Virus record (IMG/VR): IMGVR_UViG_3300008113_000328
Coordinates: 1 to 57,665 of that record
Reading direction: 5' to 3' (one strand)
Length of the DNA: 57,665 nucleotides
Origin: a virus
Taxonomy: Duplodnaviria; Caudoviricetes
Part shown: in pieces, positions 15,011 through 44,275 of the stretch
Layout: every line of letters begins with the position of its first letter
Numbering within the stretch: the stretch's first letter is position 1
Made by a program: the position numbers and the translations under genes
Notes under the pieces: model-generated
Seen by the model: only the letters and a program-made list of their open reading frames with translations
What the model was told of the DNA's origin: nothing
The model's database searches: none

Positions 15011-15013
15011 TTG

Positions 15014-15106
15014 TAGTCAGGACAGGACTCGAACCTGTAAAAAGGTAGGCTATGTACACTTGCCGTTTGAAGAACACTTGCAATTACCCATTTCTGCCAC
15101 CTGACT
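15014..15106 (-). tRNA. tRNA-like element / pseudo-tRNA with unassignable anticodon
   Basis: Acceptor AGTCAGG/CCTGACT+A, D-like arm TGGCAGAAATGGGTAATTGC and a perfect T arm ACAGG-TTCGAGT-CCTGT. The central region does not form a canonical anticodon arm. Confidence 0.6.
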
Positions 15107-16944: not shown

Positions 16945-17202
16945 TTATTTTAACTTGTTTATAACTTTCTCAGCGTACAGATACCACAGCGCAGACTCAA
17001 CCGCGTCAAGTACTTTGTGTTGTATCTCACGCTTGCCCTTCTTGATATAGAAGTCGTTTGATTTAAGCACCTGTATGATGAAGTCGTGTGTGTACATCAC
17101 AACCTCCGCGCAGTTTGGGTTCAGCTTTACATTGGGGTTCTCCTTCAGATATACCGCAATCGGGGTGACCCTTCCCGTCTTTACAAAGTCTTCAAATTTC
17201 AT
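16945..17202 (-). CDS. Hypothetical protein
   Basis: 85-aa ATG ORF coupled to the upstream gene. Confidence 0.6.
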   Translation of the reverse strand: MKFEDFVKTGRVTPIAVYLKENPNVKLNPNCAEVVMYTHDFIIQVLKSNDFYIKKGKREIQHKVLDAVESALWYLYAEKVINKLK

Positions 17203-17420
17203 CTTCTTGTTTTGTGTTTAAATGATAGTGATACAATCAAAGCACCCAAGACTACAATTATCATTAGCCAAAAGGTGTCGAGTAGAATTGCCTTGAGTAG
17301 GGACGATGGGCTTTCAGCCTCATCAATCAGGTTAAGCATAGCCCTCACTGAATAACCTGCAATAATGATGTAGATTAATCCGAGGAACAGAGCCTCGTAA
17401 ACTTTTAGAATCTTATTCAT
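17199..17420 (-). CDS. Small two-TM membrane protein
   Basis: Two hydrophobic stretches and a basic C-terminus. Confidence 0.6.
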   Translation of the reverse strand: MNKILKVYEALFLGLIYIIIAGYSVRAMLNLIDEAESPSSLLKAILLDTFWLMIIVVLGALIVSLSFKHKTRR

Positions 17421-17431
17421 TGTATATTGGT

Positions 17432-17836
17432 TTAGATGATTGACCTTCTTTCCACCTTGTATATCTCATATCCACCTGCCCTTCGCAAGCACTCGATGGC
17501 TTCCTCCTCAGTTATCACGGGCAATGTTTTGAACACAACCTTGTTAGTACTGAGCACAGCCTCGCCATTCTTTTTGTCGTTGTACAGGCTCATCGTTTTG
17601 CGATGCTCTTTAAAAAACACAGACAGCTGTTTAGTTGACAAGGGTTCAGGGGCAATCCAATTGTAGTGTCCCTTTGAAGAGGACACAATCCAATTGAGTT
17701 TGCGAAGTGTGACAAAGACCTTGGCATCAACCCTTGCTTTCTTGCGAATCTCATCGAGGTTGAATGTCTTTAAGCGTGAGCATTCTTTTAATAGGAGAGT
17801 CCATCTCTCCTCGGCTTGTTTACTTACTTGTCTCAT
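17432..17836 (-). CDS. Hypothetical protein (start revised to ATG 17836)
   Basis: A-rich leader AAATTAAATCTAATCAAATG; the longer ORF call would run through the ribozyme. Confidence 0.6.
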   Translation of the reverse strand: MRQVSKQAEERWTLLLKECSRLKTFNLDEIRKKARVDAKVFVTLRKLNWIVSSSKGHYNWIAPEPLSTKQLSVFFKEHRKTMSLYNDKKNGEAVLSTNKVVFKTLPVITEEEAIECLRRAGGYEIYKVERRSII

Positions 17837-17859
17837 TTGATTAGATTTAATTTGAGTTA

Positions 17860-17910
17860 CCCGTTTCATCCTTTCGGAATCATCAGCTGAGGCACACACC
17901 TCAGTACGGG
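17860..17910 (-). ncRNA. Type III hammerhead ribozyme HHR-1
   Basis: CCCG-UA^CUGAGG-UGUGUG-CCUCAG-CUGAUGA-UUCC-GAAA-GGAU-GAAA-CGGG; predicted cut 17905/17904. Confidence 0.92.
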
Positions 17911-17913
17911 GGA

Positions 17914-17929
17914 GTGTCTTTGAAGACAC
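17914..17929. repeat. 16-bp near-palindrome GTGTCTTCAAAGACAC (sense on -)
   Basis: Exact copy, immediately 5' of HHR-1. Confidence 0.9.
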
Positions 17930-17938
17930 CCCCTGTGA

Positions 17939-19000
17939 TTAGCTGTAGGTTATAATCTCTGACTGAGAGAACCATCCATTACAACCAAGGCAGTGGTAGT
18001 GGTTGAACCCATCGAACTCCAAGTCGTGGTAGCAGTCTATACAGATTGGCTTCTTGGACTCATCAGCAAAGTCAAAGTCAAACTCAGTAGTCTCGTGCTC
18101 GTAGTCATACTTGCTGTCGAATAGTTCATAGTTCTTGGCAGGGGTTGGCTTCTTCCAATGTTGCTCATAGCTTTTGTGCAACTTGGCTCCGCCCTCTATG
18201 TCCTTGCCGTTGAAGTATATCCAACAGGTGAGCACACGCTTCTTCATCTGAATCTGAATCTGCTTGCGCACATACCAACGTGGGTGACCCTCGAGTCTGT
18301 CCAACTCTTCAAGCGTCTCTGAGTTTACCTTGAACACATCCACGTCCACGTTGTACCCAATACCCTTCTTCTCAATTAGGTACGGCAGTCCGCTAACAAC
18401 GAGCGGATACCTGTCCTTGGTTTGTCCTGCGCCAAGGTATCCTGCTGAGCGCAGGTAGTGGTAGTAGTTTGAGTTGCCCTTCTTGAGCGTGCCGTACACC
18501 GCGACCAAGTGTTCCTCAAGCACGTTGTCCTTAGAGAACCATATGCCATCGCGCTGTGTCCACAGGTGCTTGTTGTAAATCTGATAGGTGCGGTTGCGTG
18601 TGTTGATGGTAACGAAACGGCAGGGGTGCTTCTCGAGTTCTGCCTTCCACGTGTGACGAGGTATCTCGCCAAGCGATATAGCCAACGCCTTGGTGTCTGA
18701 TATCTGCGCATTGCCTAGCCCGTAGATAGTTCCGTTCATCATAAGCCACTCCTTTGAGTTAGCACCACACTCAAATGGATGAGTGTTCTCCCTGTTAATT
18801 GCACCGATGGTAGCGTATCGGAAGTGAGCAATGAACGGACGCTTGGTATCTAGCTGTCTGTATTCCTTGGACTCGTGATAGGTAACCTCAAAGGTGTCGA
18901 GCCAAATGATGCCGAGTCCGTGAGGGTTGATACGCGCTGATGATTTGGCGACACTTACAGGCAGTCGCATACCCTTTTGTTTGATGATGATTACACACAT
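17939..19000 (-). CDS. Class II glutamine amidotransferase (Ntn) fused to a gamma-glutamylcyclotransferase domain and a C-terminal Zn ribbon
   Basis: MCVI N-terminal Cys, NPHGLG, HFRYATIG..NTHPF, MMNG, SDT; VAVYGTLKKG..LDRLEGHP; CIDC..CLGC. Start set at ATG 19000. Confidence 0.85.
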   Translation of the reverse strand: MCVIIIKQKGMRLPVSVAKSSARINPHGLGIIWLDTFEVTYHESKEYRQLDTKRPFIAHFRYATIGAINRENTHPFECGANSKEWLMMNGTIYGLGNAQISDTKALAISLGEIPRHTWKAELEKHPCRFVTINTRNRTYQIYNKHLWTQRDGIWFSKDNVLEEHLVAVYGTLKKGNSNYYHYLRSAGYLGAGQTKDRYPLVVSGLPYLIEKKGIGYNVDVDVFKVNSETLEELDRLEGHPRWYVRKQIQIQMKKRVLTCWIYFNGKDIEGGAKLHKSYEQHWKKPTPAKNYELFDSKYDYEHETTEFDFDFADESKKPICIDCYHDLEFDGFNHYHCLGCNGWFSQSEIITYS

Positions 19001-19059
19001 AGTGATTAGATTTATGGGCATCGTACTAAACGAAGAACCCTGATTGAACTGATTTTGCA

Positions 19060-19091
19060 CAAAGGTACGACAATCTTTAGACAATGTCAAG
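19060..19091 (-). promoter_or_regulatory. Repeated early promoter (-33 CTTG, 20-nt spacer, TACCTTTG)
   Basis: Homologous to the promoters at 21270 and 22809. Confidence 0.7.
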
Positions 19092-19099
19092 TAAAATCT

Positions 19100-19261
19100 T
19101 TATGACGAACTCCGTGCTATTGATAGCAGGTCAGCCCTATCTTGCAGTTCCTTCTTTAGTTTGAGTAGCATCGGCATTGTTTCCTCGTAGGTTATCTTGC
19201 CATCGTCAAACTGCTTTGATAGATTTCTCATATCGTCAATCATATCTTCCATTGTCCTCAT
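19100..19261 (-). CDS. Small hypothetical protein
   Basis: MRTMEDMIDDMRNLSK..., 53 aa, following the upstream stop. Confidence 0.5.
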   Translation of the reverse strand: MRTMEDMIDDMRNLSKQFDDGKITYEETMPMLLKLKKELQDRADLLSIARSSS

Positions 19262-19268
19262 CGCCTGC

Positions 19269-19517
19269 CTAATGTGTTGAGGTAGACACCCATTCCTTGG
19301 GGCTGACTTTCTCCTCCTTTGTTTCTCTGTAGCTGAGGTAGTCTGTGATGTAGTCATCAATTGCTTCGGTCTGACTGCCATAGTCACGCTCCCAAATCTT
19401 TCGCTTGATAGACAGGCCATCATTCTCCTCAGTGATATACACGCTGAATATCTCGCATTTGTTTCTTGAGATGGGGTCTACATATTCTTCGACCCTAAAG
19501 ATAAGTTCTGTTGTCAT
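19269..19517 (-). CDS. Hypothetical protein
   Basis: 82-aa ATG ORF with an A-rich leader. Confidence 0.6.
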   Translation of the reverse strand: MTTELIFRVEEYVDPISRNKCEIFSVYITEENDGLSIKRKIWERDYGSQTEAIDDYITDYLSYRETKEEKVSPKEWVSTSTH

Positions 19518-19534
19518 ATGAATTTTTGATTTAA

Positions 19535-19825
19535 TTAGTCAGGAAATTTCTCTTCGTCATTGTCATCCAAGTACATCTCCCACCCCGATGGCTCGTCAAA
19601 GAACAGGCGTAGCTGATGCATCTCTGTGTCAATGTCCTCGGCATCGTAGAAGTGTGAGGTCTCTGCCCAATCGAAGAACTCAGCACGCTCACCCCTCTCC
19701 ATTGCGTGGAAGAGGTGGCGAGCCTGTGCCTTTTGTCCGTTGGCAATACTCTCGATGATGTACTCGAAGTACTCTTCTGCGGAATCAAATCCGTAGTCTT
19801 GAATTAGTTTCTGTAGTGCTCCCAT
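19535..19825 (-). CDS. Acidic hypothetical protein
   Basis: 96-aa ATG ORF tightly packed in the operon. Confidence 0.6.
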   Translation of the reverse strand: MGALQKLIQDYGFDSAEEYFEYIIESIANGQKAQARHLFHAMERGERAEFFDWAETSHFYDAEDIDTEMHQLRLFFDEPSGWEMYLDDNDEEKFPD

Positions 19826-19827
19826 AG

Positions 19828-20208
19828 TTATCCAAATATAGTTTCGTTAAAGAATACTTGTTGAAGAATCACGTCAGCCGTAACGGCATCATCATTCTCG
19901 TTGATGGCATCCATCAGGTGACGAATGTCTGTGTTCTGTACTCGCTCGTGTACATCCTGCATCGTAATGGTTCGGGTGTACTCGCCCTCGTATCCAATGT
20001 CAACCAAGGTCAGGCTGTTGCCGTCTTTGAGGATTTGGATTAGCGTATCCTCGTGACAGGGTGACGTTAGTTTCTTAGACGCATCAACGTAGTCTTTGCG
20101 CTTGTAAGTTAGGTCGAGGTCATATCCACACTCTATGTATGCAAGTCCGTTGCACAGAGCGGTGTGGAATAGTTCCTCTGATTCTTGTGGGGTCAGTGTT
20201 ACTTTCAT
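19828..20208 (-). CDS. Hypothetical protein
   Basis: 126-aa ATG ORF. Confidence 0.65.
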   Translation of the reverse strand: MKVTLTPQESEELFHTALCNGLAYIECGYDLDLTYKRKDYVDASKKLTSPCHEDTLIQILKDGNSLTLVDIGYEGEYTRTITMQDVHERVQNTDIRHLMDAINENDDAVTADVILQQVFFNETIFG

Positions 20209-20213
20209 CGTGA

Positions 20214-20621
20214 TTAGTTTTTGGGTTTATAATTTCCTTCAGCGAGGTGGTCAATCTCATTGTTCACATCCTCGATTGTCCTGTCGATTGCATCGGTCAG
20301 CAGTTCGTATGCCTCGAGTTCACTGCACTCGTACTTGTCCATCACATCGCTCACGTGCCATAGGCTTTCAGCGTGGTAGCCGTTCCTTCTCAGTGCCTGT
20401 TTTATTTCCTTGTTGGTGTATAGGAAGCCCACGTCAATGCCGATTGGGTTGCCTCTCTCGAGTGCCTCATTCAACTGCTCCTGCGTTTCGATGAGTGACT
20501 CTGAGTCATCATCGTGCAGTTCATAGATTGACAGTGCGCCTGAACTTAGTAGTTCCTTTGCCGCGTAGGTTACGATGCACCACACGTAGCCATCGTCTGT
20601 TACTTTGATTTTGTGTGACAT
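20214..20621 (-). CDS. Hypothetical protein
   Basis: 135-aa ATG ORF 19 nt downstream of HHR-2. Confidence 0.65.
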   Translation of the reverse strand: MSHKIKVTDDGYVWCIVTYAAKELLSSGALSIYELHDDDSESLIETQEQLNEALERGNPIGIDVGFLYTNKEIKQALRRNGYHAESLWHVSDVMDKYECSELEAYELLTDAIDRTIEDVNNEIDHLAEGNYKPKN

Positions 20622-20640
20622 AAAATTGATTGTGTTAGTT

Positions 20641-20691
20641 TCCGTTTCATCCTTTTGGAATCATCAGTCGGGACACTCATCCCGATACGGA
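20641..20691 (-). ncRNA. Type III hammerhead ribozyme HHR-2
   Basis: UCCG-UA^UCGGGA-UGAGUG-UCCCGA-CUGAUGA-UUCC-AAAA-GGAU-GAAA-CGGA; cut 20686/20685. Confidence 0.92.
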
Positions 20692-20694
20692 GCA

Positions 20695-20710
20695 GTGTCT
20701 TTGAAGACAC
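20695..20710. repeat. 16-bp near-palindrome
   Basis: Exact copy 5' of HHR-2, extended by GCG/UGC pairing on the minus strand. Confidence 0.9.
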
Positions 20711-20727
20711 CGCCCCTAACACACACA

Positions 20728-21234
20728 TTAAACAACTAACACCATATCTTCCCTGAGGTTGAAGTACAAGGGCGTATCTATCCCGTCAAACAGCACGTTG
20801 TATCTGAACAGGGAGCCGTCCTCGAACTCAATACGATTAACCTTGCGCCCACTCTTCGCCTCAATCAACAGCCTTGCACCCTCGAGCACAGGGGTTGCTT
20901 CCCACTTTAGCTTTCTCTTCTCATTGTACAGGCGGTAAAGCGTGTAGCTATCCACTTTGTTGAACGACTCAGCCATCGGGCACAACCACTCGAGCGCATC
21001 CATTATCATACTCGGATAAAGACTATCCTTGTCCCAATCCTTTATGTACTGCTTGCATCCTTCCAATTCATACCACATATACTTATCGAACAGGGTTGGC
21101 CTGTCTTGATAGTAGACACTCACCCAATGCCCGTCATCTTCATTGCGGTAGATACTGACCACACCACCATCTTCCGTCAGGATATTAACCTCATCGTTGT
21201 TGAGGATTTCAACTGCGTAATTCATTTTAACCAT
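20728..21234 (-). CDS. Hypothetical protein
   Basis: 168-aa ATG ORF downstream of the promoter at 21270. Confidence 0.65.
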   Translation of the reverse strand: MVKMNYAVEILNNDEVNILTEDGGVVSIYRNEDDGHWVSVYYQDRPTLFDKYMWYELEGCKQYIKDWDKDSLYPSMIMDALEWLCPMAESFNKVDSYTLYRLYNEKRKLKWEATPVLEGARLLIEAKSGRKVNRIEFEDGSLFRYNVLFDGIDTPLYFNLREDMVLVV

Positions 21235-21269
21235 TGTGATAATTGTTAGAAGTTTGAACTAATTTTGCG

Positions 21270-21315
21270 CAAAGATACGACAACGAATGAACGATGTCAA
21301 ATAAAGTTATCAACA
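21270..21315 (-). promoter_or_regulatory. Repeated early promoter TGTTGATAAC-TTTA-TTTG-N20-TATCTTTG
   Basis: Canonical Bacteroidota -33/-7 geometry plus an upstream DnaA-box-like TTATCAACA. Confidence 0.75.
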
Positions 21316-21471
21316 GGGGTACTCCCCGTACACCTTGAAGTAACACTCTTCGCAGTCAGCGTCAGTGCCTTCGGTGTTGTCGATACACTCTTGCAGTAGT
21401 ATCTCTTTGTCAAATTCTGATGCCGCCCATATGCCCACGGCAAATACAACGGCAAGGATTACTTTCTTCAT
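21310..21471 (-). CDS. Small membrane-anchored/secreted Cys-containing peptide (53 aa, not in ORF track)
   Basis: MKKVILAVVFAVGIWAASEFDKEILLQECIDNTEGTDADCEECYFKVYGEYPC; ATGA overlap with the upstream stop. Confidence 0.55.
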   Translation of the reverse strand: MKKVILAVVFAVGIWAASEFDKEILLQECIDNTEGTDADCEECYFKVYGEYPC

Positions 21472-21656
21472 TGCTGTGCTGTTTTAGTTGGTGATTGAAC
21501 TGCCTTTGATGTGAGGTAGATTAGCTTGTCAACGAGGTCGAACTCAGCCTGTGTCACAGGCTCAGGTAGGAACAGCGCGTCCAATACGACTTTGTCCATA
21601 TGAACGAAGTCAATCTTTGTCTCATCGAATGAGAACGTGATGGTTACTTGTGTCAT
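21468..21656 (-). CDS. Hypothetical protein (start revised to ATG 21656)
   Basis: MTQVTITFSF...; TAATG coupling to the upstream lipoprotein gene. Confidence 0.55.
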   Translation of the reverse strand: MTQVTITFSFDETKIDFVHMDKVVLDALFLPEPVTQAEFDLVDKLIYLTSKAVQSPTKTAQQ

Positions 21657-21838
21657 TAGCTTGGGAAGTTTAGGGTTCTGTAGTTCTGTTTGCAACCCTT
21701 GAAGTTGGGGTTGTGGTCGTGACGGAAGTTTCCGTGGCTCCGACTCTTTGATTGCTTTGTTCTGTAGGCTTGGTGCTGTGAACCACAGCTTTGGAACAGG
21801 ACAGCGATTGCTGTCAGGATTGTGATTGCTTTTCTCAT
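21656..21838 (-). CDS. Small lipoprotein
   Basis: MRKAITILTAIAVLFQS-C lipobox-type signal peptide. Confidence 0.6.
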   Translation of the reverse strand: MRKAITILTAIAVLFQSCGSQHQAYRTKQSKSRSHGNFRHDHNPNFKGCKQNYRTLNFPS

Positions 21839-22032
21839 TTGCGTGGAAGTATTTCAAAGTAAGATGGTTTGTAAAACTTGTGATTCACCCAAGGGTAGAC
21901 AGCCTCTGTCCATTCTCTGTCGTTGATACGCTCGTGGATAGACGGGTAGCTTAACACCTTGGTCTTGATGAGGGTCACAAGCATTGGTGCGCCCTCGTAA
22001 CGGAACCTGCCGTAGTAAGTTGGTGTGCTCAT
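21835..22032 (-). CDS. Hypothetical protein
   Basis: 65-aa ORF coupled on both sides. Confidence 0.55.
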   Translation of the reverse strand: MSTPTYYGRFRYEGAPMLVTLIKTKVLSYPSIHERINDREWTEAVYPWVNHKFYKPSYFEILPRK

Positions 22033-22346
22033 TATTGTGGGGTTTGGATTACTTGATAGTTCTCGATTAGAAAGTCGTTGTACTCGAACTTGCCTGTCTT
22101 GATGAACTCAAGAATCTCAGGCTCGTAGGCGTACTCAATGACACACTCCTCGAAGTACAGGGTGTACATCGCCAAGCCCGTGTCATCGTCCTGACCCTCG
22201 TAGACAATCGTGCCCTCGTCCTGTAACTCTAAGAACAGGACACGTGCCGCGTTGTCGTTCATCTTTTCGATACTCACAAAGCCTTCGCTCTGTGCCTTTG
22301 ATTGCAGTGCAATGAACATCATTGCCGAAATGAATAGTGCTTTCAT
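22032..22346 (-). CDS. Secreted acidic protein
   Basis: Signal peptide MKALFISAMMFIALQSKA/Q with Bacteroidota-type Gln at +1; directly downstream of HHR-3. Confidence 0.6.
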   Translation of the reverse strand: MKALFISAMMFIALQSKAQSEGFVSIEKMNDNAARVLFLELQDEGTIVYEGQDDDTGLAMYTLYFEECVIEYAYEPEILEFIKTGKFEYNDFLIENYQVIQTPQ

Positions 22347-22370
22347 TTGTGATTAGATTAAATTAGATTT

Positions 22371-22419
22371 CCGTTTCGTTCTTTTGAACTCATCAGGTAG
22401 GACACTCATCCTACTACGG
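22371..22419 (-). ncRNA. Type III hammerhead ribozyme HHR-3
   Basis: CCG-UA^GUAGGA-UGAGUG-UCCUAC-CUGAUGA-GUUC-AAAA-GAAC-GAAA-CGG; cut 22415/22414. Confidence 0.93.
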
Positions 22420-22421
22420 GA

Positions 22422-22437
22422 GTGTCTTTGAAGACAC
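22422..22437. repeat. 16-bp near-palindrome
   Basis: Exact copy 5' of HHR-3. Confidence 0.9.
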
Positions 22438-22451
22438 TCACGCTTTGCTCA

Positions 22452-22592
22452 TCAGCTTGCTTGAAGTACCGACTCAATTACCTTCATCATCCCATATCCC
22501 TCAGCCTTCTCGTTGGAGTTACCCAAGTCGATTAGTTCTTGTGCCTGCTCTTCTAGTTCCGCAAGTAGCTTGCTTAATTTTTGATTCTTCAT
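22452..22592 (-). CDS. Small hypothetical protein (46 aa, not in ORF track)
   Basis: MKNQKLSKLLAELEEQAQELIDLGNSNEKAEGYGMMKVIESVLQAS fills the gap between the upstream stop and the hairpin. Confidence 0.55.
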   Translation of the reverse strand: MKNQKLSKLLAELEEQAQELIDLGNSNEKAEGYGMMKVIESVLQAS

Positions 22593-22597
22593 AGTGA

Positions 22598-22777
22598 TTA
22601 GTGTTTAGGGTTTGACTCGAATGTGACTGCGACAATAGACAGCAGTGAAAGAAGACCGCACAGGTATCCTAACCATACCGCTACGCCAATGTTTAAGGTG
22701 TGACCGATTGAAATAACAACCATTGAAAGGGCTGTCATTACTGCGCAAACAAGCGCGATGTGTTTTGTGTGTGACAT
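22598..22777 (-). CDS. Small two-TM membrane protein (start revised)
   Basis: MSHTKHIALVCAVMTAL...; downstream of the promoter at 22809. Confidence 0.55.
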   Translation of the reverse strand: MSHTKHIALVCAVMTALSMVVISIGHTLNIGVAVWLGYLCGLLSLLSIVAVTFESNPKH

Positions 22778-22808
22778 AGATTTAAGTATTAAATGAACTA
22801 ATTTTCGA

Positions 22809-22854
22809 CAAAGGTACGACATTGAATAGACAATGTCAAATAAAGTTATGAACA
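22809..22854 (-). promoter_or_regulatory. Repeated early promoter TGTTCATAAC-TTTA-TTTG-N20-TACCTTTG
   Basis: Homolog of the 21270 and 19060 promoters. Confidence 0.75.
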
Positions 22855-22893
22855 CCCTGTTGTTTGTGGCTTCAGGGTGCTCATAGCTGTGCA

Positions 22894-23151
22894 CTACCAC
22901 TGCACAGGTCGTGGTGCTGTTGCGTGGTACTTTGAGCCACTCGCCTCAGGGTTCAGGCTCATATCGTGCTGTGCATTCTCAAGCCACTGCGCAAACTCAA
23001 GCATAAGCATTGCAAAGGCAGTGTCGTTGTGGCACTCAAGACGCACGACAAGTACGTCTGAGTCGTTAATAATTTGGTGTCCGTCAACCTTGCGCTCGTT
23101 GATGAAAGCGTGAAACATAGGTGACCAATCGAGGAAATAAGTACGTGTCAT
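22894..23151 (-). CDS. Hypothetical protein
   Basis: 85-aa ATG ORF downstream of HHR-4. Confidence 0.55.
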   Translation of the reverse strand: MTRTYFLDWSPMFHAFINERKVDGHQIINDSDVLVVRLECHNDTAFAMLMLEFAQWLENAQHDMSLNPEASGSKYHATAPRPVQW

Positions 23152-23179
23152 TTGTGTGACTGAATTAAGTTATGTGTGT

Positions 23180-23233
23180 TCCTGTTTCGTCCTTCGTGGA
23201 CTCATCAGCACAGGCAACTACCTGTGGACAGGA
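23180..23233 (-). ncRNA. Type III hammerhead ribozyme HHR-4
   Basis: UCCUG-UC^CACAGG-UAGUUG-CCUGUG-CUGAUGA-GUCC-ACGAA-GGAC-GAAA-CAGGA; GUC site, cut 23227/23226. Confidence 0.95.
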
Positions 23234-23239
23234 GGGCAG

Positions 23240-23255
23240 GTGTCTTTGAAGACAC
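23240..23255. repeat. 16-bp near-palindrome
   Basis: Exact copy 5' of HHR-4. Confidence 0.9.
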
Positions 23256-23268
23256 CGCCCCTGTGCGC

Positions 23269-23493
23269 TCAATTGAGCGTCATCAAAAAGTACTTTGAGC
23301 GACCGCGCCACTCACCATACTGCTTGTCAATTTCGTAGGCGAATACGCTCAGTACAAGTGTGCGCTCAGCCCCGTACATAGTCACGTACTGCGACTGCTC
23401 TTCGCCCTCGTTAGTCCAAATTTCTACGCCCTCACCAAGGCGTACTACCTGTTCGTCTGTGATTTCAGTCAGATTGAATTTTTCAAAGTTCAT
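23269..23493 (-). CDS. Hypothetical protein flanked by HHR-5 and HHR-4
   Basis: 74-aa ATG ORF with an A/C-rich leader. Confidence 0.6.
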   Translation of the reverse strand: MNFEKFNLTEITDEQVVRLGEGVEIWTNEGEEQSQYVTMYGAERTLVLSVFAYEIDKQYGEWRGRSKYFLMTLN

Positions 23494-23516
23494 AACGTGT
23501 GTGTTTTTAAGGTTTG

Positions 23517-23565
23517 CCGTTTCGTCCTTTTGGACTCATCAGACAGGGCACTCACCCTGTTACGG
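23517..23565 (-). ncRNA. Type III hammerhead ribozyme HHR-5
   Basis: CCG-UA^ACAGGG-UGAGUG-CCCUGU-CUGAUGA-GUCC-AAAA-GGAC-GAAA-CGG; cut 23561/23560. Confidence 0.95.
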
Positions 23566-23573
23566 GAGGGGCA

Positions 23574-23589
23574 GTGTCCTTGAAGACAC
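23574..23589. repeat. 16-bp near-palindrome, one-base variant
   Basis: GTGTCCTTGAAGACAC (A-U changed to G-U on the minus strand), 5' of HHR-5. Confidence 0.85.
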
Positions 23590-23603
23590 CACCCCTGCTT
23601 CCC

Positions 23604-24494
23604 TTAGTACCTCGGGAGGTACTGACGGATGCTCTCAGACACCGCGCCCGTGTCGATGAACTTTTGAAAGTCAACCGCAAGGTTCAGCACCTTCATCGCC
23701 TTTGTAGTGTCCCCGTTGTACATTAGAACTACAAGCGGTGAAATGTGCTTCAGGAACGTCTTTGTAGTAGTGTTCGGGGCTGTGATTGCCACGTTCACCA
23801 CCTCGTACATTAACTCGTAGCGTCTCATCAACTGCTTCACGCTCTCGAATCGGCTCACCACACGAAACTCGAGCACGTTGCCCTTGTTTAAGGCCACTTG
23901 ATATTTGTGGTGATAGCGCAAGTGCTGTCCAATGTCCATAGCTGTATGCATACGCAGGTTGTGGTTGCAAAAGTCATTTTTGAGGCGGTTGCGGAACAGC
24001 GCGTAAATAATGCCCGAATACTTGCGCACGGCTGTGTTGATTTCATCGCCTGTCATCCCTTCGACACCGATAGTCATATGACCACCGCAACGGCTGTCAG
24101 ACGGGCTGTATTGGTCTTCGATAATGTAACGGGCTTTGTGCATCATATCGTACACCTTTGTGCGCCACTGACCCTGTGGGAGCAAAGGCAGGATGTGGCT
24201 CACAGCCTCGTAGCCGCACGATGCATCACGCTCGAAGCCGCAAAACAACTCGTACTCACGCACCGAATTGCGGTGCAATTGGTTCTTTTCAACCTCAATG
24301 CCGATAGTGAAACGGCTTGCAATAGCCCCGTTGATGAGGGCAAAATTGTCGCGCTGTTGACGTGGCTTGAGTCCTGCAATGTCTATGCGGTGACGTGTCA
24401 CGCTCAATTTGTTTGGTGCAGGCTTGTAGTGGTATGAGTGAACTACGCCACGAGCGTGCTCGCCTGTCAATCTGTATTGGATACCTGTGTTCAT
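23604..24494 (-). CDS. Putative amidoligase (COOH-NH2 ligase family)
   Basis: RFTIGIEVE, RDASCGYEAVS, CGGHMTIG, VLEFRV motif order; co-occurs with the GATase-GGCT gene. Confidence 0.7.
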   Translation of the reverse strand: MNTGIQYRLTGEHARGVVHSYHYKPAPNKLSVTRHRIDIAGLKPRQQRDNFALINGAIASRFTIGIEVEKNQLHRNSVREYELFCGFERDASCGYEAVSHILPLLPQGQWRTKVYDMMHKARYIIEDQYSPSDSRCGGHMTIGVEGMTGDEINTAVRKYSGIIYALFRNRLKNDFCNHNLRMHTAMDIGQHLRYHHKYQVALNKGNVLEFRVVSRFESVKQLMRRYELMYEVVNVAITAPNTTTKTFLKHISPLVVLMYNGDTTKAMKVLNLAVDFQKFIDTGAVSESIRQYLPRY

Positions 24495-24518
24495 TGTGTG
24501 TGTGGTTTTAAGTGGGCA

Positions 24519-24534
24519 GTGTCTTTGAAGACAC
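24519..24534. repeat. 16-bp near-palindrome in an extended hairpin, no ribozyme
   Basis: GGGCGGTGTCTTCAAAGACACTGCCC on the minus strand, intergenic. Confidence 0.9.
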
Positions 24535-24552
24535 CGCCCTGTTTATGATTGT

Positions 24553-25206
24553 TTATTGGTTAACTGCGTATTTCACTTTGGTGGTGAACAGGCGAATAGC
24601 CTCTAACACTGCGTCCTTGTCAGCAGTGGTGTGAATAGCCCCGTCTGTATCGATTCGCACAGCTATGTTAGCCCCTTCGGGGTTCTTGAAAGTGAATGAA
24701 AATACCACCTGTGGACGCACCTCAATTGCAGGCTCTTCGCCTTCGCCTTCGCCCTCTTCACCGCCTTCGCCTGTTCCACTGCTCTCTTGTCCCTGTTCCA
24801 AAGCCTTAGCGAACTTATTGAGAGCCTCAATACTGCGAACAGGCTTCTCGCCTGTGCTCTCAGCCTCATCGCACTTTGCGTTGAACGTCTCAATCACCTC
24901 AGCAGGTAGTTCACCTGCCTTGACTAGCTTGCAGAAAAACGACTTCTTGTATCCAAACACCTTTTCGCCAAGGGCTTCCTTAGTGAACGTCACGCCCTCC
25001 TCTTCGCACAGGGCTTTACCCTCTGCGCTGTTCACCCAAGCCCAAGCCTGTGCCGACAGCTTTGCCATACTCAGAGTGTTCTCAAACGTCTTCTTCTCAG
25101 CCTTAGCCATAGTGCGCTGTAAGGCTGTCACCTGTTGCAGGTTCATACCTGCCTTAACCTGTGGATTGCTGAGGAACGATGCCTCAATTGATAGTAAATT
25201 GCTCAT
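24553..25206 (-). CDS. Hypothetical protein, first gene of the early operon
   Basis: 217-aa ATG ORF with a Gly/Glu linker. Confidence 0.7.
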   Translation of the reverse strand: MSNLLSIEASFLSNPQVKAGMNLQQVTALQRTMAKAEKKTFENTLSMAKLSAQAWAWVNSAEGKALCEEEGVTFTKEALGEKVFGYKKSFFCKLVKAGELPAEVIETFNAKCDEAESTGEKPVRSIEALNKFAKALEQGQESSGTGEGGEEGEGEGEEPAIEVRPQVVFSFTFKNPEGANIAVRIDTDGAIHTTADKDAVLEAIRLFTTKVKYAVNQ

Positions 25207-25266
25207 AAAGTGTTGATTTTGAATGTGTTATGTTATTTTATAGCTCCCGTTCGTCGGTTGCCGTGG

Positions 25267-25274
25267 CAAATATA
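25267..25274 (-). promoter_or_regulatory. -7 element TATATTTG heading the early operon
   Basis: TAnnTTTG about 60 nt upstream of ATG 25206; a TTATCAACA box lies at about 25327-25335. Confidence 0.55.
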
Positions 25275-25335
25275 GTGTATTCCTTGTCTATTTCGATACA
25301 CTCAAGTGTGAATAAATGTGAACAAGTTATCAACA

Positions 25336-25660
25336 GGCTGATTTGTTTGCGCCTGTAAAGGGTTGCAGGGGCGTAGCCCTCTGTCATCGGGCGTGCTCAG
25401 TGTCTTTGAGGACACTTCTACAGGGGCGGAGGAGGAGCGGAGGGCAGGTGACAGGGGCGAACAGCTGTGCGGGACAGGTGCACCGCCCTGCGCTATGCAG
25501 GGCAGTGCTACGGGGCTACAGGCGGCTACAGGATGACAGGGCGAAAAGCCAAAAACCTCACAGGGGCGCACCGAAATCTGACCCCCACCCCTTTGCCAGA
25601 GAGCCGTTTCCGCGCGGGGGGTGGCGCGCGTGCCGTGGGGGGTTACCCCAACACTACTAC
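25336..25660. other. GC-rich non-coding divergence region with ACAGG(G) repeats and a palindrome variant at 25400-25415
   Basis: No credible ORF; high G+C relative to its flanks; lies between the leftward and rightward transcription units. Confidence 0.5.
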
Positions 25661-25709
25661 CATCTAATAATTTTGATTACCTTTGTTGTGTACTAAAAAA
25701 ATTACTACT

Positions 25710-25967
25710 ATGAAAATGAAACTGAATGTAGGTAACAGTGTTTACCAAGGAGGTTATAACGGTGGAGGCTCGGGCTTGACCGTTAAGAATGGTCGTTTGA
25801 TTAACAATGCTCCTGACGGTCGTATGGGAATCACTAAGATTGCTGATACGGTAAAGGAGATGAAGCGTAATCAGAAGATTGATATGCAGACTCAGGCTAT
25901 TCTTCGTGCTGAGGCTATTGAGAAGATGAACGAGATGATGGGTGGGGAGTGCAGCGAGTGTGATTAA
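25710..25967 (+). CDS. Hypothetical protein
   Basis: ATG 25710 downstream of TACCTTTG (25678-25685). Confidence 0.6.
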   Translation: MKMKLNVGNSVYQGGYNGGGSGLTVKNGRLINNAPDGRMGITKIADTVKEMKRNQKIDMQTQAILRAEAIEKMNEMMGGECSECD

Positions 25968-25991
25968 GTAAATTTCTAAACTTTTAATACG

Positions 25992-26153
25992 ATGGTAAAC
26001 AAAGAGCAAGTGCTTGGATTGATTCGTCACGCTTTGACTTTTGTCGGAGGTTGTTTGGTGGCGAATGGTATTTTGACTGACTCTATGTCTGCGGATATAG
26101 TTGGGTCTTGTATGGCTTTGATTGGAACTATTTGGTCCTTGATTGTGAAATGA
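25992..26153 (+). CDS. Small two-TM holin-like membrane protein (53 aa, not in ORF track)
   Basis: MVNKEQVLGLIRHALTFVGGCLVANG...IGTIWSLIVK. Confidence 0.6.
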   Translation: MVNKEQVLGLIRHALTFVGGCLVANGILTDSMSADIVGSCMALIGTIWSLIVK

Positions 26154-26176
26154 TAGTTGCTATGGTTTAGTGTTTG

Positions 26177-26207
26177 AAAAGGGGAGACTAACGAGTCTCC
26201 CTTTTTT
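26177..26207 (+). terminator. Intrinsic terminator (possibly bidirectional)
   Basis: AAAAG-GGGAGACT-AACG-AGTCTCCC-TTTTTT. Confidence 0.8.
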
Positions 26208-26390
26208 ATGATAGATAATCGACATTACTATGTCATTTTTATGTTTGTTTTTTTATAGCTAACTTATTGATTATTATTATTTATGTCGATTATGTCGATT
26301 TTAAGAGAAGTTTCTAATATATAAAATAATAATAAAAGGAGGGAAAATATATATATATATAGGGACGAAGAAGATTGACATTTCGTCATT
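26208..26390. other. AT-rich region with TATGTC repeats; candidate origin B
   Basis: Same ordered motifs as 14391-14552. Confidence 0.4.
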
Positions 26391-26447
26391 GCTCTTGTTT
26401 CTTTGTAAAGGTGGTGTATATTTGCCCTAACAATTAAATCCAATCAA

Positions 26448-28064
26448 ATGATAGACAATCAAGGTTACTCTCCCAAGGACTTACGTTTTGGTTCTGATGG
26501 GCGAGACAAATTAATTAGGGGTGTCACTAAGATGGCCCGGGCGGTAAAGAGTACACTTGGGCCTAACGGCAACACTGTACTGATAGAGTCGCCAACTCAC
26601 ACACACGGTATTACGGTAACGAAGGATGGTGTCACGGTAGCCAAGGCGGTTGACCTGATGGACCCTACTGAGAACCTTGCGGTTCGGATGATGAAGGAGG
26701 CGGCAGACCGCACGGCTACATCAGCGGGTGATGGTACGACAACGGCCATTGTGTTGACTGAGGCTCTTGTGCTTGGTGGTGTTGAGCATATTACTGAGAA
26801 GCATAATCGGACGCAGGTGTTGCGTCATATGGTGGAGATATCGGACAAGGTGGTGGAGAAGTTAAAGAAGAAGAGCAAGAAGCTATCGAGTTCAATGCTT
26901 CTTGACGTGGCTACTATCTCATCTAACAATGACAAGGAGATTGGCAGTATCATCGCAAAGGTTTATAAGGAGGTTGGCAAGAATGGTATTGTAACTGTTG
27001 AGAAGTCACAGACATCTGAGACGTATTCGGAGACGACCTTGGGTTTGAAGTTTGACCGTGGGTATTTGTCTCCGTTGTTTATCAACAACCACAAGAAGGA
27101 CGAGTGTGTGTTTGAGGATGTGATGGTCTTGGTTGCTGATATGGAGATATCGAACATCTTGCAGATTGAGAACGTGCTCAAGCCAATTATCACTGAGGGG
27201 AAGAAGTTATTGATTATCTCTCCCTGCAATATGAATGTGGTAAACACGCTTGCGGCAAACGTGATGAAGGGTAATCTGAAAGTATGTGTTGTGCCACCGC
27301 CCAACTTTGGATACAAGCAGCACGAGCTGATGCAGGACATTGCTTTGAGTGTTGGTGCTACATACTTTAGTGAGAAGACGGGTGACGACTTGAGCCTTAT
27401 TAATTATGGTTGTCTTGGTCACGCGGCTAAGGTGATTGTGTCGAAGGACAAGACGGTGATACTGAAGTCTGAGGCTCGTGTAAATGCTGATGCTATAGCT
27501 GAGCGAGTGAGTGAGCTATGGGCTGCTCACGCGGTAGCTAAGAAGAAGTCTGACAAAGATTTCTTGTTGGAGCGTATTGCGTCATTGACGGGTGGCATCG
27601 GTGTCATCTTTGTTGGTGGGAATACTGACCTTGAGCAGAAGGAGTTGTATGACCGTGTGGATGATGCGGTATGTGCTGTTCGTTCTGCACTTGAGGAGGG
27701 CATTGTGCCGGGGGCAGGTAAAGCTTTGTTTGAGTTTAATCTGAATGAGTTCTTATCAGACAATTCTACCAATGAGTACAAGGCTGCCATTAAGATTATG
27801 CAGTCGGCACTTGAGGCTCCGCTCACTCAGATTCTTGAGAACGCGGGACTGTGTATGACCAATGTGTATGGTGGTAGAATGAAAGAGGGTGAGGGGTATA
27901 ATGTGAAGACGGGGGAGATTGGTGACCTCATTGAGATGGGTGTTATTGACCCGACTAAGGTTACACGTAGTGCTCTTCAGAACGCGGTGAGTGTGGCGAC
28001 AACTATCCTTAGCACAAATGCAATCATTACGATGGCTCGTAGTTATGAGGAGGCCGCGCTATGA
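26448..28064 (+). CDS. groEL: Chaperonin GroEL
   Basis: TLGPNG, VTKDGVTVAK, AGDGTTTA, FDRGYLSP, EEGIVPGAG, GVIDPTKVTRSALQNA. Confidence 0.97.
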   Translation: MIDNQGYSPKDLRFGSDGRDKLIRGVTKMARAVKSTLGPNGNTVLIESPTHTHGITVTKDGVTVAKAVDLMDPTENLAVRMMKEAADRTATSAGDGTTTAIVLTEALVLGGVEHITEKHNRTQVLRHMVEISDKVVEKLKKKSKKLSSSMLLDVATISSNNDKEIGSIIAKVYKEVGKNGIVTVEKSQTSETYSETTLGLKFDRGYLSPLFINNHKKDECVFEDVMVLVADMEISNILQIENVLKPIITEGKKLLIISPCNMNVVNTLAANVMKGNLKVCVVPPPNFGYKQHELMQDIALSVGATYFSEKTGDDLSLINYGCLGHAAKVIVSKDKTVILKSEARVNADAIAERVSELWAAHAVAKKKSDKDFLLERIASLTGGIGVIFVGGNTDLEQKELYDRVDDAVCAVRSALEEGIVPGAGKALFEFNLNEFLSDNSTNEYKAAIKIMQSALEAPLTQILENAGLCMTNVYGGRMKEGEGYNVKTGEIGDLIEMGVIDPTKVTRSALQNAVSVATTILSTNAIITMARSYEEAAL

Positions 28065-28311: not shown

Positions 28312-28569
28312 ATGAAACCAATAGGAAAATACATTGTCGTTGTTACGACAGAGGAGGAAGTGAAGACCGAGTCAGGATTAATCTTGTCGGGAGATGACGT
28401 GAATCAGTTTCGCTACAAACGTGGTGTTGTGGTTGAGCCGGGAACTGAAGTGGCTAATATAAAGAAAGGAGACAAGATTTATTTTGATAAGGCGCATAGC
28501 TTCGCAATGATTATCAATGACAATCAATACACCATCATTCGCGAGTCTGATGTCGTTGTTGTCGAGTAA
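28312..28569 (+). CDS. groES: Co-chaperonin GroES
   Basis: MKPIG..KTESGLILS..IKKGDKIYF..IIRESDVV. Confidence 0.93.
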   Translation: MKPIGKYIVVVTTEEEVKTESGLILSGDDVNQFRYKRGVVVEPGTEVANIKKGDKIYFDKAHSFAMIINDNQYTIIRESDVVVVE

Positions 28570-44244: not shown

Positions 44245-44275
44245 GGAGAGTGTCTTCAAAGACACTCTCCTTTTT
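44245..44275 (+). terminator. Intrinsic terminator built on the 16-bp palindrome
   Basis: GGAGAGTGTC-TTCAAA-GACACTCTCC-TTTTT; motif at 44250-44265. Confidence 0.85.

Follow-up and report, generated by a model that had tools for sequence, protein, structure and literature searches.

The stretch analysed here, called the window below, is the whole of IMG/VR virus record IMGVR_UViG_3300008113_000328 (57,665 bases; estimated completeness 95%). From ~25,200 down to ~8,450 its genes run on the minus strand as a leftward early region, with conserved genes for a 217-amino-acid (aa) and a 296-aa protein that match no family, many small open reading frames (ORFs), a 360-aa glutamine-amidotransferase (GATase)/GGACT protein, DnaA-like helix-turn-helix proteins, a Sak annealing protein, a PDDEXK exonuclease, a primase-helicase-like protein and an SNF2 helicase. 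Within 5.7 kb of this run we noted five type III hammerhead ribozymes, HHR-1 to HHR-5, all in the sense of the minus-strand genes (Table 1). The window terminase is 48% identical to terminases of Flavobacterium, Cellulophaga, Tenacibaculum and Maribacter phages and 84% identical to that of an uncultured spring-water podovirus (MW202828.1); in all it has 87 matching records, 68 of them from Flavobacterium and 15 from Cellulophaga phages. Based on the likeness to Flavobacterium and Cellulophaga phages the host is probably a member of the Flavobacteriia, and the phage itself is an uncultured, aquatic, podovirus-like phage of lytic type and not a prophage.

A search of the window for the core pattern CTGATGA-N8-30-GAAAC returned nine rows against 0.33 expected, and none of 100 shuffled sequences reached nine. 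Between them, six of the rows make up five distinct cores, each of them on the minus strand, and the remaining three (8804/8818-8837 and 12735-12765) have no stems around them. All five hammerheads have the CUGAUGA...GAAA core, a GUH cleavage triplet and the stems. A family model, R1, which was built from 86 family members and has the five window hammerheads in its training set, picked out these five and no others when the window was searched with filters off, at 63.5-77 bits. The core-adjacent pair is G10.1-C11.1 in three of the five and U-U in HHR-1 and HHR-2. Stem III is CCGU/ACGG in HHR-1, 2, 3 and 5, just as the first-pass annotation of this DNA had claimed, while HHR-4 differs in having CUGU/ACAG.

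Cut sites were placed by sequence reading and Rfam alignments. They delimit four units with the same lengths as those given by the first-pass annotation (334, 812, 1729 and 2781 nucleotides, nt), and these units hold between one and about six ORFs each. The smallest was said to consist of a single 74-aa ORF with a leader and a hairpin, and this is what we find: the 74-aa frame is its sole ATG ORF. The 74-aa protein has four homologue clusters, at 69-97% identity, and no relative was found in a viral-contig search.

Table 1. Positions of the ribozymes, hairpins, palindromes, ribozyme-bounded units and promoter-like repeats in the window. Cores are given in the direction of the minus strand.
Feature	Position	Strand	Details
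HHR-5, type III	23513..23568	minus	GUA; cut 23561/23560; core 23542-23519; G10.1-C11.1; Rfam 38.8 bits, E 6.9e-5; R1 75.7 bits
HHR-4, type III	23178..23234	minus	GUC; cut 23227/23226; core 23208-23184; stem III CUGU/ACAG; absent from Rfam listing; R1 63.5 bits
HHR-3, type III	22367..22422	minus	GUA; cut 22415/22414; core 22396-22373; Rfam 37.2 bits; R1 76.4 bits
HHR-2, type III	20638..20693	minus	GUA; cut 20686/20685; core 20667-20644; U10.1-U11.1 mismatch; Rfam 35.4 bits; R1 77 bits
HHR-1, type III	17857..17912	minus	GUA; cut 17905/17904; core 17886-17863; U10.1-U11.1 mismatch; Rfam 29.5 bits, E 0.03; R1 72.6 bits
Hairpin 5' of HHR-5	23568..23595	minus	~8 nt past stop of 296-aa gene; 40 nt upstream -22.0 kcal/mol
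Hairpin 5' of HHR-4	23234..23260	minus	3' end of 334-nt unit
Hairpin abutting HHR-3	22420..22439	minus	
Hairpin 5' of HHR-2	20689..20716	minus	
Hairpin 5' of HHR-1	17910..17933	minus	~5 nt past stop of 360-aa GATase/GGACT gene
Ribozyme-free copy of palindromic hairpin core	24519..24534	minus	between 217-aa and 296-aa genes
Palindrome copies	10429, 31007, 37145, 44250	plus	
Palindrome copies	17929, 20710, 22437, 23255, 23589, 24534, 25415	minus	
334-nt unit, HHR-5 to HHR-4	23560-23227	minus	ribozyme body, ~24-nt leader, 74-aa ORF, 3' hairpin
812-nt unit, HHR-4 to HHR-3	23226-22415	minus	between cut sites
1729-nt unit, HHR-3 to HHR-2	22414-20686	minus	between cut sites
2781-nt unit, HHR-2 to HHR-1	20685-17905	minus	between cut sites
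74-aa ORF	23269..23493	minus	sole ATG ORF of 334-nt unit; no Pfam or PHROG match
Promoter-like repeat TTTG-N-TAnnTTTG	22809..22840	minus	in 812-nt unit; consensus assumed
Promoter-like repeat	21270..21301	minus	in 1729-nt unit; consensus assumed

All five ribozymes have a hairpin immediately 5' of them, whose top reads GTGTCTTCAA(A/G)GACAC, and in modules of this family the hairpin core is usually GTGTCTTCAAAGACAC. The placement of the module was followed in 135 distinct ribozymes with 400-nt flanks. Each of these has an upstream ORF, with a median of 39 nt from its stop to the cut (interquartile range, IQR, 36-43), and 133 have a downstream ORF of at least 40 codons, which starts a median of 22 nt after stem III (IQR 20-27) and in 113 cases within 40 nt. 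The upstream palindrome was present in 67 of 86 ribozymes, and about 16 of the other 19 carry a different strong hairpin in its place; the 40 nt upstream of the ribozyme have a mean fold energy of -16.5 kcal/mol with the palindrome and -13.8 kcal/mol in the 19 without it, and the 40 nt downstream have -1.9 and -2.7 kcal/mol in the same two groups. The module fills the intergenic space: after the stop codon come 5-12 nt, then a stable hairpin and the hammerhead, and an unstructured leader of ~22 nt, rich in A and C, leads to the ATG of the next gene.

The 16-nt palindrome at the top of the hairpin occurs in 11 copies in the window. Five are fused to ribozymes, two on the minus strand are ribozyme-free, and three are within predicted ORFs, in one case in antisense. 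At 44250, downstream of a capsid-like gene, the palindrome is followed by a T-run and is terminator-like. The palindrome may bind a protein.

To find relatives we used a loose pattern (hairpin core, CUGAUGA and GAAAC) that does not require stems. It matched 73 stretches on ~50 IMG/VR contigs of 16-65 kb and more than 143 stretches on metagenome contigs of freshwater and marine origin, and had no match among 185,579 species genomes. Stems were not preselected in the 67 distinct sequences found with this pattern, and 63 of them have the GUH site together with stems I, II and III. In an alignment of 86 distinct ribozymes, the core columns are invariant in every sequence. The alignment has 15 pairs in three helices, of which stems I and II are capped by loops and stem III is open. 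Standard pairs occupy 95.7% of the 1290 pair cells (15 pairs in 86 sequences), a percentage inflated by the script's preselection for stems, as compared to 70.9% in shuffles and 36-45% when the partners were slid. Changes on both sides of a pair were seen in 368 cells, against 108 +/- 13 in shuffles, and 12 of the 15 pairs have compensatory changes. Four pairs of stem III are solid across the family, and a fifth is found in 57 of the 86. Conserved and covarying as they are, the five window motifs are confirmed at the level of sequence as real hammerheads.

Among 170 distinct ribozymes, stem III is CCGU/ACGG in 86 and CUGU/ACAG in 61. In the same set we noted that the core-adjacent pair, 10.1-11.1, tracks the cleavage triplet: the common combinations are GUC with G-C (87), GUA with G-C (37) and GUA with U-U (33), and the rarer ones are GUU with A-A (10), GUC with A-A (2) and GUA with G-U (1). 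This association may be due to shared descent. The U-U form is already known, and we found no mention of A-A at this position in the parts of the literature covered.

Of the 50 related records, 27 have a completeness of 90% or more, and in these we counted ribozymes with R1; every one of the 27 was found through the module, so the presence of a ribozyme in each is by construction. Three of these genomes have one ribozyme, six have two, nine have three and nine have four, for a total of 78. The window's five is the highest count seen, and across the family the module occurs one to five times per genome. The conserved 296-aa gene was located in two of the three genomes with one ribozyme, and in both the ribozyme comes right after it, a place that corresponds to that of HHR-5. 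Outside this set, the cultured Flavobacterium phage elemoE 6-9C has one hammerhead (41 bits) at the start of an operon, shortly before gp59, and Pseudomonas phage phiIBB-PAA2 has one (65 bits) that ends at the start codon of orf01. In both phages the single hammerhead is in the leader of a first early gene. Single-copy ribozymes in relatives and in unrelated phages indicate that cleavage is useful by itself.

In the 73 viral loci, tblastn found the 296-aa protein in 51, the 217-aa protein in 41 and the 360-aa protein in 62, and most of the small ORFs between the conserved genes matched the closest relative alone or nothing; the 74-aa protein had no match in these loci.

Over 47 nt, HHR-2 has 93.6-95.7% identity to hammerheads of Pseudomonas Bruynoghevirus phages (PaP3/LUZ24-like) in the best 40 of 71 records, and all 71 matching records are at least 80% identical to it over that length (one such site is at L221 1087-1142). 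Such identity across host phyla suggests horizontal spread of one ribozyme lineage.

We believe that the modules probably punctuate the polycistronic early transcript into separate linear mRNAs that have hairpins at their 3' ends and 5'-OH ends. The five elements would then be active type III hammerheads in a compact intergenic module, each cutting itself as the leftward early region is transcribed. The upstream RNA would be left with a 3' end made of the hairpin and a few nt with a 2',3'-cyclic phosphate, shielded from 3' exonucleases, and the downstream RNA would begin with a 5'-OH and the folded ribozyme body, a poor entry for 5'-end-dependent RNases. The ribozyme fold would also keep the leader free of upstream sequence. 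Since stem III has only 4-5 base pairs (bp), the products would part quickly and cleavage would be effectively irreversible. Stability and translation of the separate linear mRNAs would in this way be uncoupled from those of their neighbours, and the conserved genes and the variable small-gene cassettes could be expressed independently. Where the first-pass annotation had spoken of discrete or circular mRNAs, the discrete half is well supported by inference from conserved, covarying ribozymes placed between a stop and the next start, while the circular half is unsupported.

Several observations weigh against punctuation or limit it. MW202828.1, in spite of its similar terminase, has no hammerhead on a check of the record, so the module is dispensable. 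The stabilising role of the hairpin and the 5'-OH comes from what is generally known of bacterial RNA decay rather than from Flavobacteriia. The sequence shows the motifs, their covariation and their precise intergenic position across the family, while cutting in vivo, stabilisation and insulation of the messages, and a linear fate for what is released are inferred; linear products may also leave room for a minor circular fraction. Rfam model RF00008 aligns four of the five hammerheads from end to end and scores them at 29.5-38.8 bits (E 6.9e-5 to 0.03), in every case short of its gathering score of 48.5, and HHR-4 (23178-23234) is missing from its hits at E <= 1; we attribute these low scores to the short stem III and short loop 2, compared to a model based on plants and viroids. 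Cleavage of HHR-1 and HHR-2 may be slow owing to the U-U mismatch. U10.1-U11.1 is a known natural variant, said to allow more activity than other mispairs (PMC3088659, section 8).

The modules could also serve as DNA-level linkers for recombination of gene cassettes, a role that is compatible with RNA processing and that we consider unlikely, if less so than the other alternatives below. Homologous or annealing recombination would add, drop or swap cassettes, and the ribozyme-bounded units would be units of genome mosaicism. The closest relative (L051/G034) lacks the 334-nt unit and goes from the 296-aa gene straight to the counterpart of HHR-4, the missing block being exactly HHR-5, the leader, the 74-aa ORF and the hairpin, while a near-identical fragment, L110 (protein 97% identical), has the unit and both ribozymes. 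As between the window and L051, the 334-nt unit is an indel. The hairpin and HHR-4 are ~98% identical between the window and L051, compared to ~50-70% in the flanks, and the small units of 10 relatives carry at least six unrelated ORF families. The many copies of the 16-nt palindrome (11 in the window), the phage-encoded Sak annealing protein and PDDEXK exonuclease, and the 95.7% identity of HHR-2 over 47 nt to the hammerhead of phages of another phylum all fit with recombination as well. However, the basis of this idea is a single clean indel, gene content varies inside the units too (HHR-4 to HHR-3 is 812 nt here and 1490 nt in G034), and the high conservation of the module is equally expected under selection at the RNA level.

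The idea of circular mRNAs holds that host RtcB, or the hammerhead reaction run in reverse, links the cyclic-phosphate and 5'-OH ends of a doubly cut unit, giving exonuclease-resistant, translatable circles, most easily where a hybrid stem III forms. We think it improbable. It is also not new, as it was raised for clustered phage hammerheads by Perreault et al. 2011 (PMC3088659). In its favour, the ends have the chemistry that joining requires, 5'-OH and 2',3'-cyclic phosphate (PMC8782182), and RtcB is common in bacteria, including the Bacteroides control genome. Circular RNAs with ribozymes of a single polarity and many CRISPR-spacer matches have been described (Lee et al., bioRxiv 10.1101/2022.07.19.500677), and these could be transcripts of DNA phages, which is our suggestion and not theirs. 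Single-gene units of 211-408 nt recur in the family (13 distinct, 9 of them with a compatible stem III, defined as at least 4 bp between the downstream ribozyme's 5' strand and the upstream ribozyme's 3' strand). In the window itself a hybrid stem III of 4-5 bp is possible in three of the four units: 4 bp including one G-U in the 334-nt unit, 5 bp in the 1729-nt unit and 4 bp in the 2781-nt unit. The first-pass annotation expected ligation to rebuild a hybrid ribozyme wherever the stem III halves fit, and this could happen in these three but not in the 812-nt unit, where the hybrid stem III has only 2 bp.

Such compatibility is not peculiar to neighbours. In a first set, 31 of 49 consecutive pairs were compatible, as compared to 63.1% of 8372 ordered distinct pairs, and with the metagenome loci included 41 of 62 (66%) were compatible, as compared to 63.0% of all ordered pairs. 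When partners were permuted among the 62 pairs we obtained 37.3 +/- 1.9, and 4.4% of permutations reached 41, a figure uncorrected for relatedness. The level is explained by the fact that stem III comes in essentially two flavours, and we see no co-evolution of neighbouring ribozymes.

A circle with a compatible, rebuilt ribozyme would also be cut again, because the 3' product retains nearly the whole ribozyme. Adapters ligated by RtcB are cut off again in this manner where the ribozyme 3' fragment stays active (PMC8782182). The predicted fold of the 334-nt unit consists of local hairpins in which both ends are otherwise locked; its 3' CCUGU is predicted to pair with nt 1-5 (probability ~0.3) or with an internal site. 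The hybrid stem III, short as stem III is at 4-5 bp, has a predicted probability of <0.01, there is no rod-like fold that would sequester the ribozyme, and the minimum free energy of the circular form is 5.5 kcal/mol worse than that of the linear form, in an energy model that ignores hammerhead tertiary structure.

Other observations also lean against circles as the function under selection. Single-ribozyme relatives exist (3 of the 27 near-complete genomes). Two direct repeats of ~60 nt (22865-22800 and 21325-21260, minus strand), in the 812- and 1729-nt units, each lie 30-40 nt before a gene start and match TTTG-N17-21-TAnnTTTG, which we take to be the Bacteroidota promoter pattern. Transcripts from these internal repeats would have only one ribozyme end. 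Across the 73 viral loci the promoter-like motif has 59 occurrences on the strand of the ribozymes and 16 on the opposite strand, often between two ribozymes, and some are counted twice as the loci overlap. No phage-encoded RtcB (PF01139) was found in the window or in the 50 related records, although control genomes were matched. Perreault et al. found no circular or spliced products, and hammerhead-processed viroid monomers in E. coli give few circles ("very minor amounts") without a co-expressed plant tRNA ligase (PMC5789856).

Searches of sequencing data were neutral. A sequencing-run search with window positions 17700-23700 found no RNA run with the phage, and three small metatranscriptome runs of the same study gave no contigs on 17700-25700, neither of which is evidence either way; the only runs that this search gave were metatranscriptomes from lake water, which entered as companions from the same study as the best-matching runs. 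Terminal direct repeats were present in none of 17 whole short metagenome contigs with the module, and none of 178 ribozyme sites was within 2 nt of a locus end, but these contigs are probably DNA and the two counts are therefore uninformative on circles. In the literature we found no report of circular mRNAs from phage hammerhead clusters, nor any link between hammerheads and Flavobacterium or Cellulophaga phages, and PMC11592204 says nothing of RtcB or Tornado.

Taken together, the sequence tests do not support circular mRNAs, and several of them lean against circles as a selected function. Some doubly cleaved units might be joined by RtcB or by themselves in infected Flavobacteriia, with the 334-nt unit and its 211-408-nt counterparts as the best candidates, but this seems quite doubtful to us, and the chance of a circular fraction that is biologically meaningful is small. 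That the motifs might be hammerhead-like relics, decayed or inactive and without any function today, is scarcely credible: Rfam scores below gathering, a U-U mismatch at 10.1/11.1 in two ribozymes and one relative (MW202828.1) without a hammerhead might suggest this, but the core is invariant in 86 of 86, compensatory changes are plentiful, placement is exact, and according to PMC3088659 (section 8) the U-U form occurs naturally and allows cleavage.

What hammerheads do for bacteria and phages is still counted among the open questions (PMC6765202), and this phage family is an unusually clean natural case, with a fixed module in one to five copies per genome. Given that the module is found in ~50 viral contigs, in more than 143 aquatic metagenome stretches and in the cultured phage elemoE 6-9C, the effect of punctuation on mRNA stability and translation is directly testable. 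The arrangement itself is already known (Perreault et al. 2011), and what is new here is a large and tidy family. Circles, if true, would be the first natural circular mRNAs encoded by a phage, and would provide small early proteins with messages that exonucleases cannot attack; that idea would matter greatly, and it is neither new nor supported here.

We also noted other features of the window. The 217-aa and 296-aa genes (23604-25206, minus strand) have a hairpin between them, and in MW202828.1 the two are annotated as a single 574-aa coding sequence (L222 6311-8035), directly followed by a gamma-glutamyl cyclotransferase gene with no hammerhead. The idea that the 296-aa protein is an amidoligase had no Pfam support even at E <= 1, and megablast of positions 17000-26000 against GenBank phages gave no match. 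The window encodes GroEL-like (Cpn60; 26448-28064, plus strand) and GroES-like (Cpn10; 28312-28569, plus strand) chaperonins, which are annotated in MW202828.1 too. In the divergent region upstream of the early operon, positions 25380-25700 form a non-coding island of ~65% GC, as compared to 42% for the genome, with repeated GCCCCTGT-like words and no Rfam match, and the adjoining 26150-26450 has 21-28% GC and short repeats. The GC-rich island and the neighbouring AT-rich stretch could be an origin or a regulatory region. The tRNA-like gene at 15013-15106 (minus strand; Rfam tRNA, 37.3 bits) is good in its acceptor and T arm, has ~32 nt in place of the anticodon arm, and is read by ARAGORN with a four-base anticodon, tcaa; a UCA suppressor, a CAA Leu tRNA and a degenerate tRNA are candidates for what it is.

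The closest known system is that of Perreault et al. 2011 (PMC3088659), who described clustered hammerheads flanking genes in prophages and phages and proposed a role in mRNA processing. Clustered phage hammerheads cleave polycistronic transcripts of ~2 kb in vitro into the expected pieces (PMC3088659; PMC6765202); circular or spliced products were considered and neither was detected (data not shown in PMC3088659). As in the window, the hammerheads of those clusters are in gene sense and flank single genes or short blocks of varying identity, weak stems III are common, and processing of long phage transcripts to gene-length mRNAs was proposed. In contrast to those clusters, the window's five are all type III, belong to one sequence family, are fused to a 5' hairpin and lie ~22 nt before an ATG, and the family is found in uncultured lytic-type aquatic phages rather than prophages, with none of the 185,579 species genomes matching the module.

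The Bruynoghevirus hammerhead (PaP3/LUZ24-like phages and phiIBB-PAA2) shares with HHR-2 the GUA triplet, U10.1-U11.1 and both loops, but occurs once per genome in phages of another host phylum, has no visible upstream palindromic hairpin, and has the start codon overlapping stem III. Judging by the sequence of this relative, the PaP3 ribozyme tested by Perreault et al. would be the U-U form. The LUZ24 transcriptome paper (PMC10914365) makes no mention of a ribozyme.

Retrozymes and viroid-like circles resemble the window in that tandem type III hammerheads release a unit with 5'-OH and 2',3'-cyclic-phosphate ends, of a size similar to 334 nt. Those RNAs are non-coding and fold into highly base-paired rods or branches in which the ends are kept close and the ribozyme is hidden; tRNA ligase or RtcB closes them into circles, and they need reverse transcription or RNA replication (PMC5680766, PMC7761336). 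The window units, in contrast, are coding RNAs of an ordinary kind, 334-2781 nt long, whose two ends carry different ribozymes and which have no closing structure. For the insulating effect that punctuation would have, there is an engineered counterpart in RiboJ, a hammerhead insulator placed upstream of a coding region, which removes variable 5' context and standardises expression. The helper hairpin of RiboJ is 3' of the ribozyme, whereas the window hairpin is natural, lies 5' of the ribozyme, and ends the upstream RNA.

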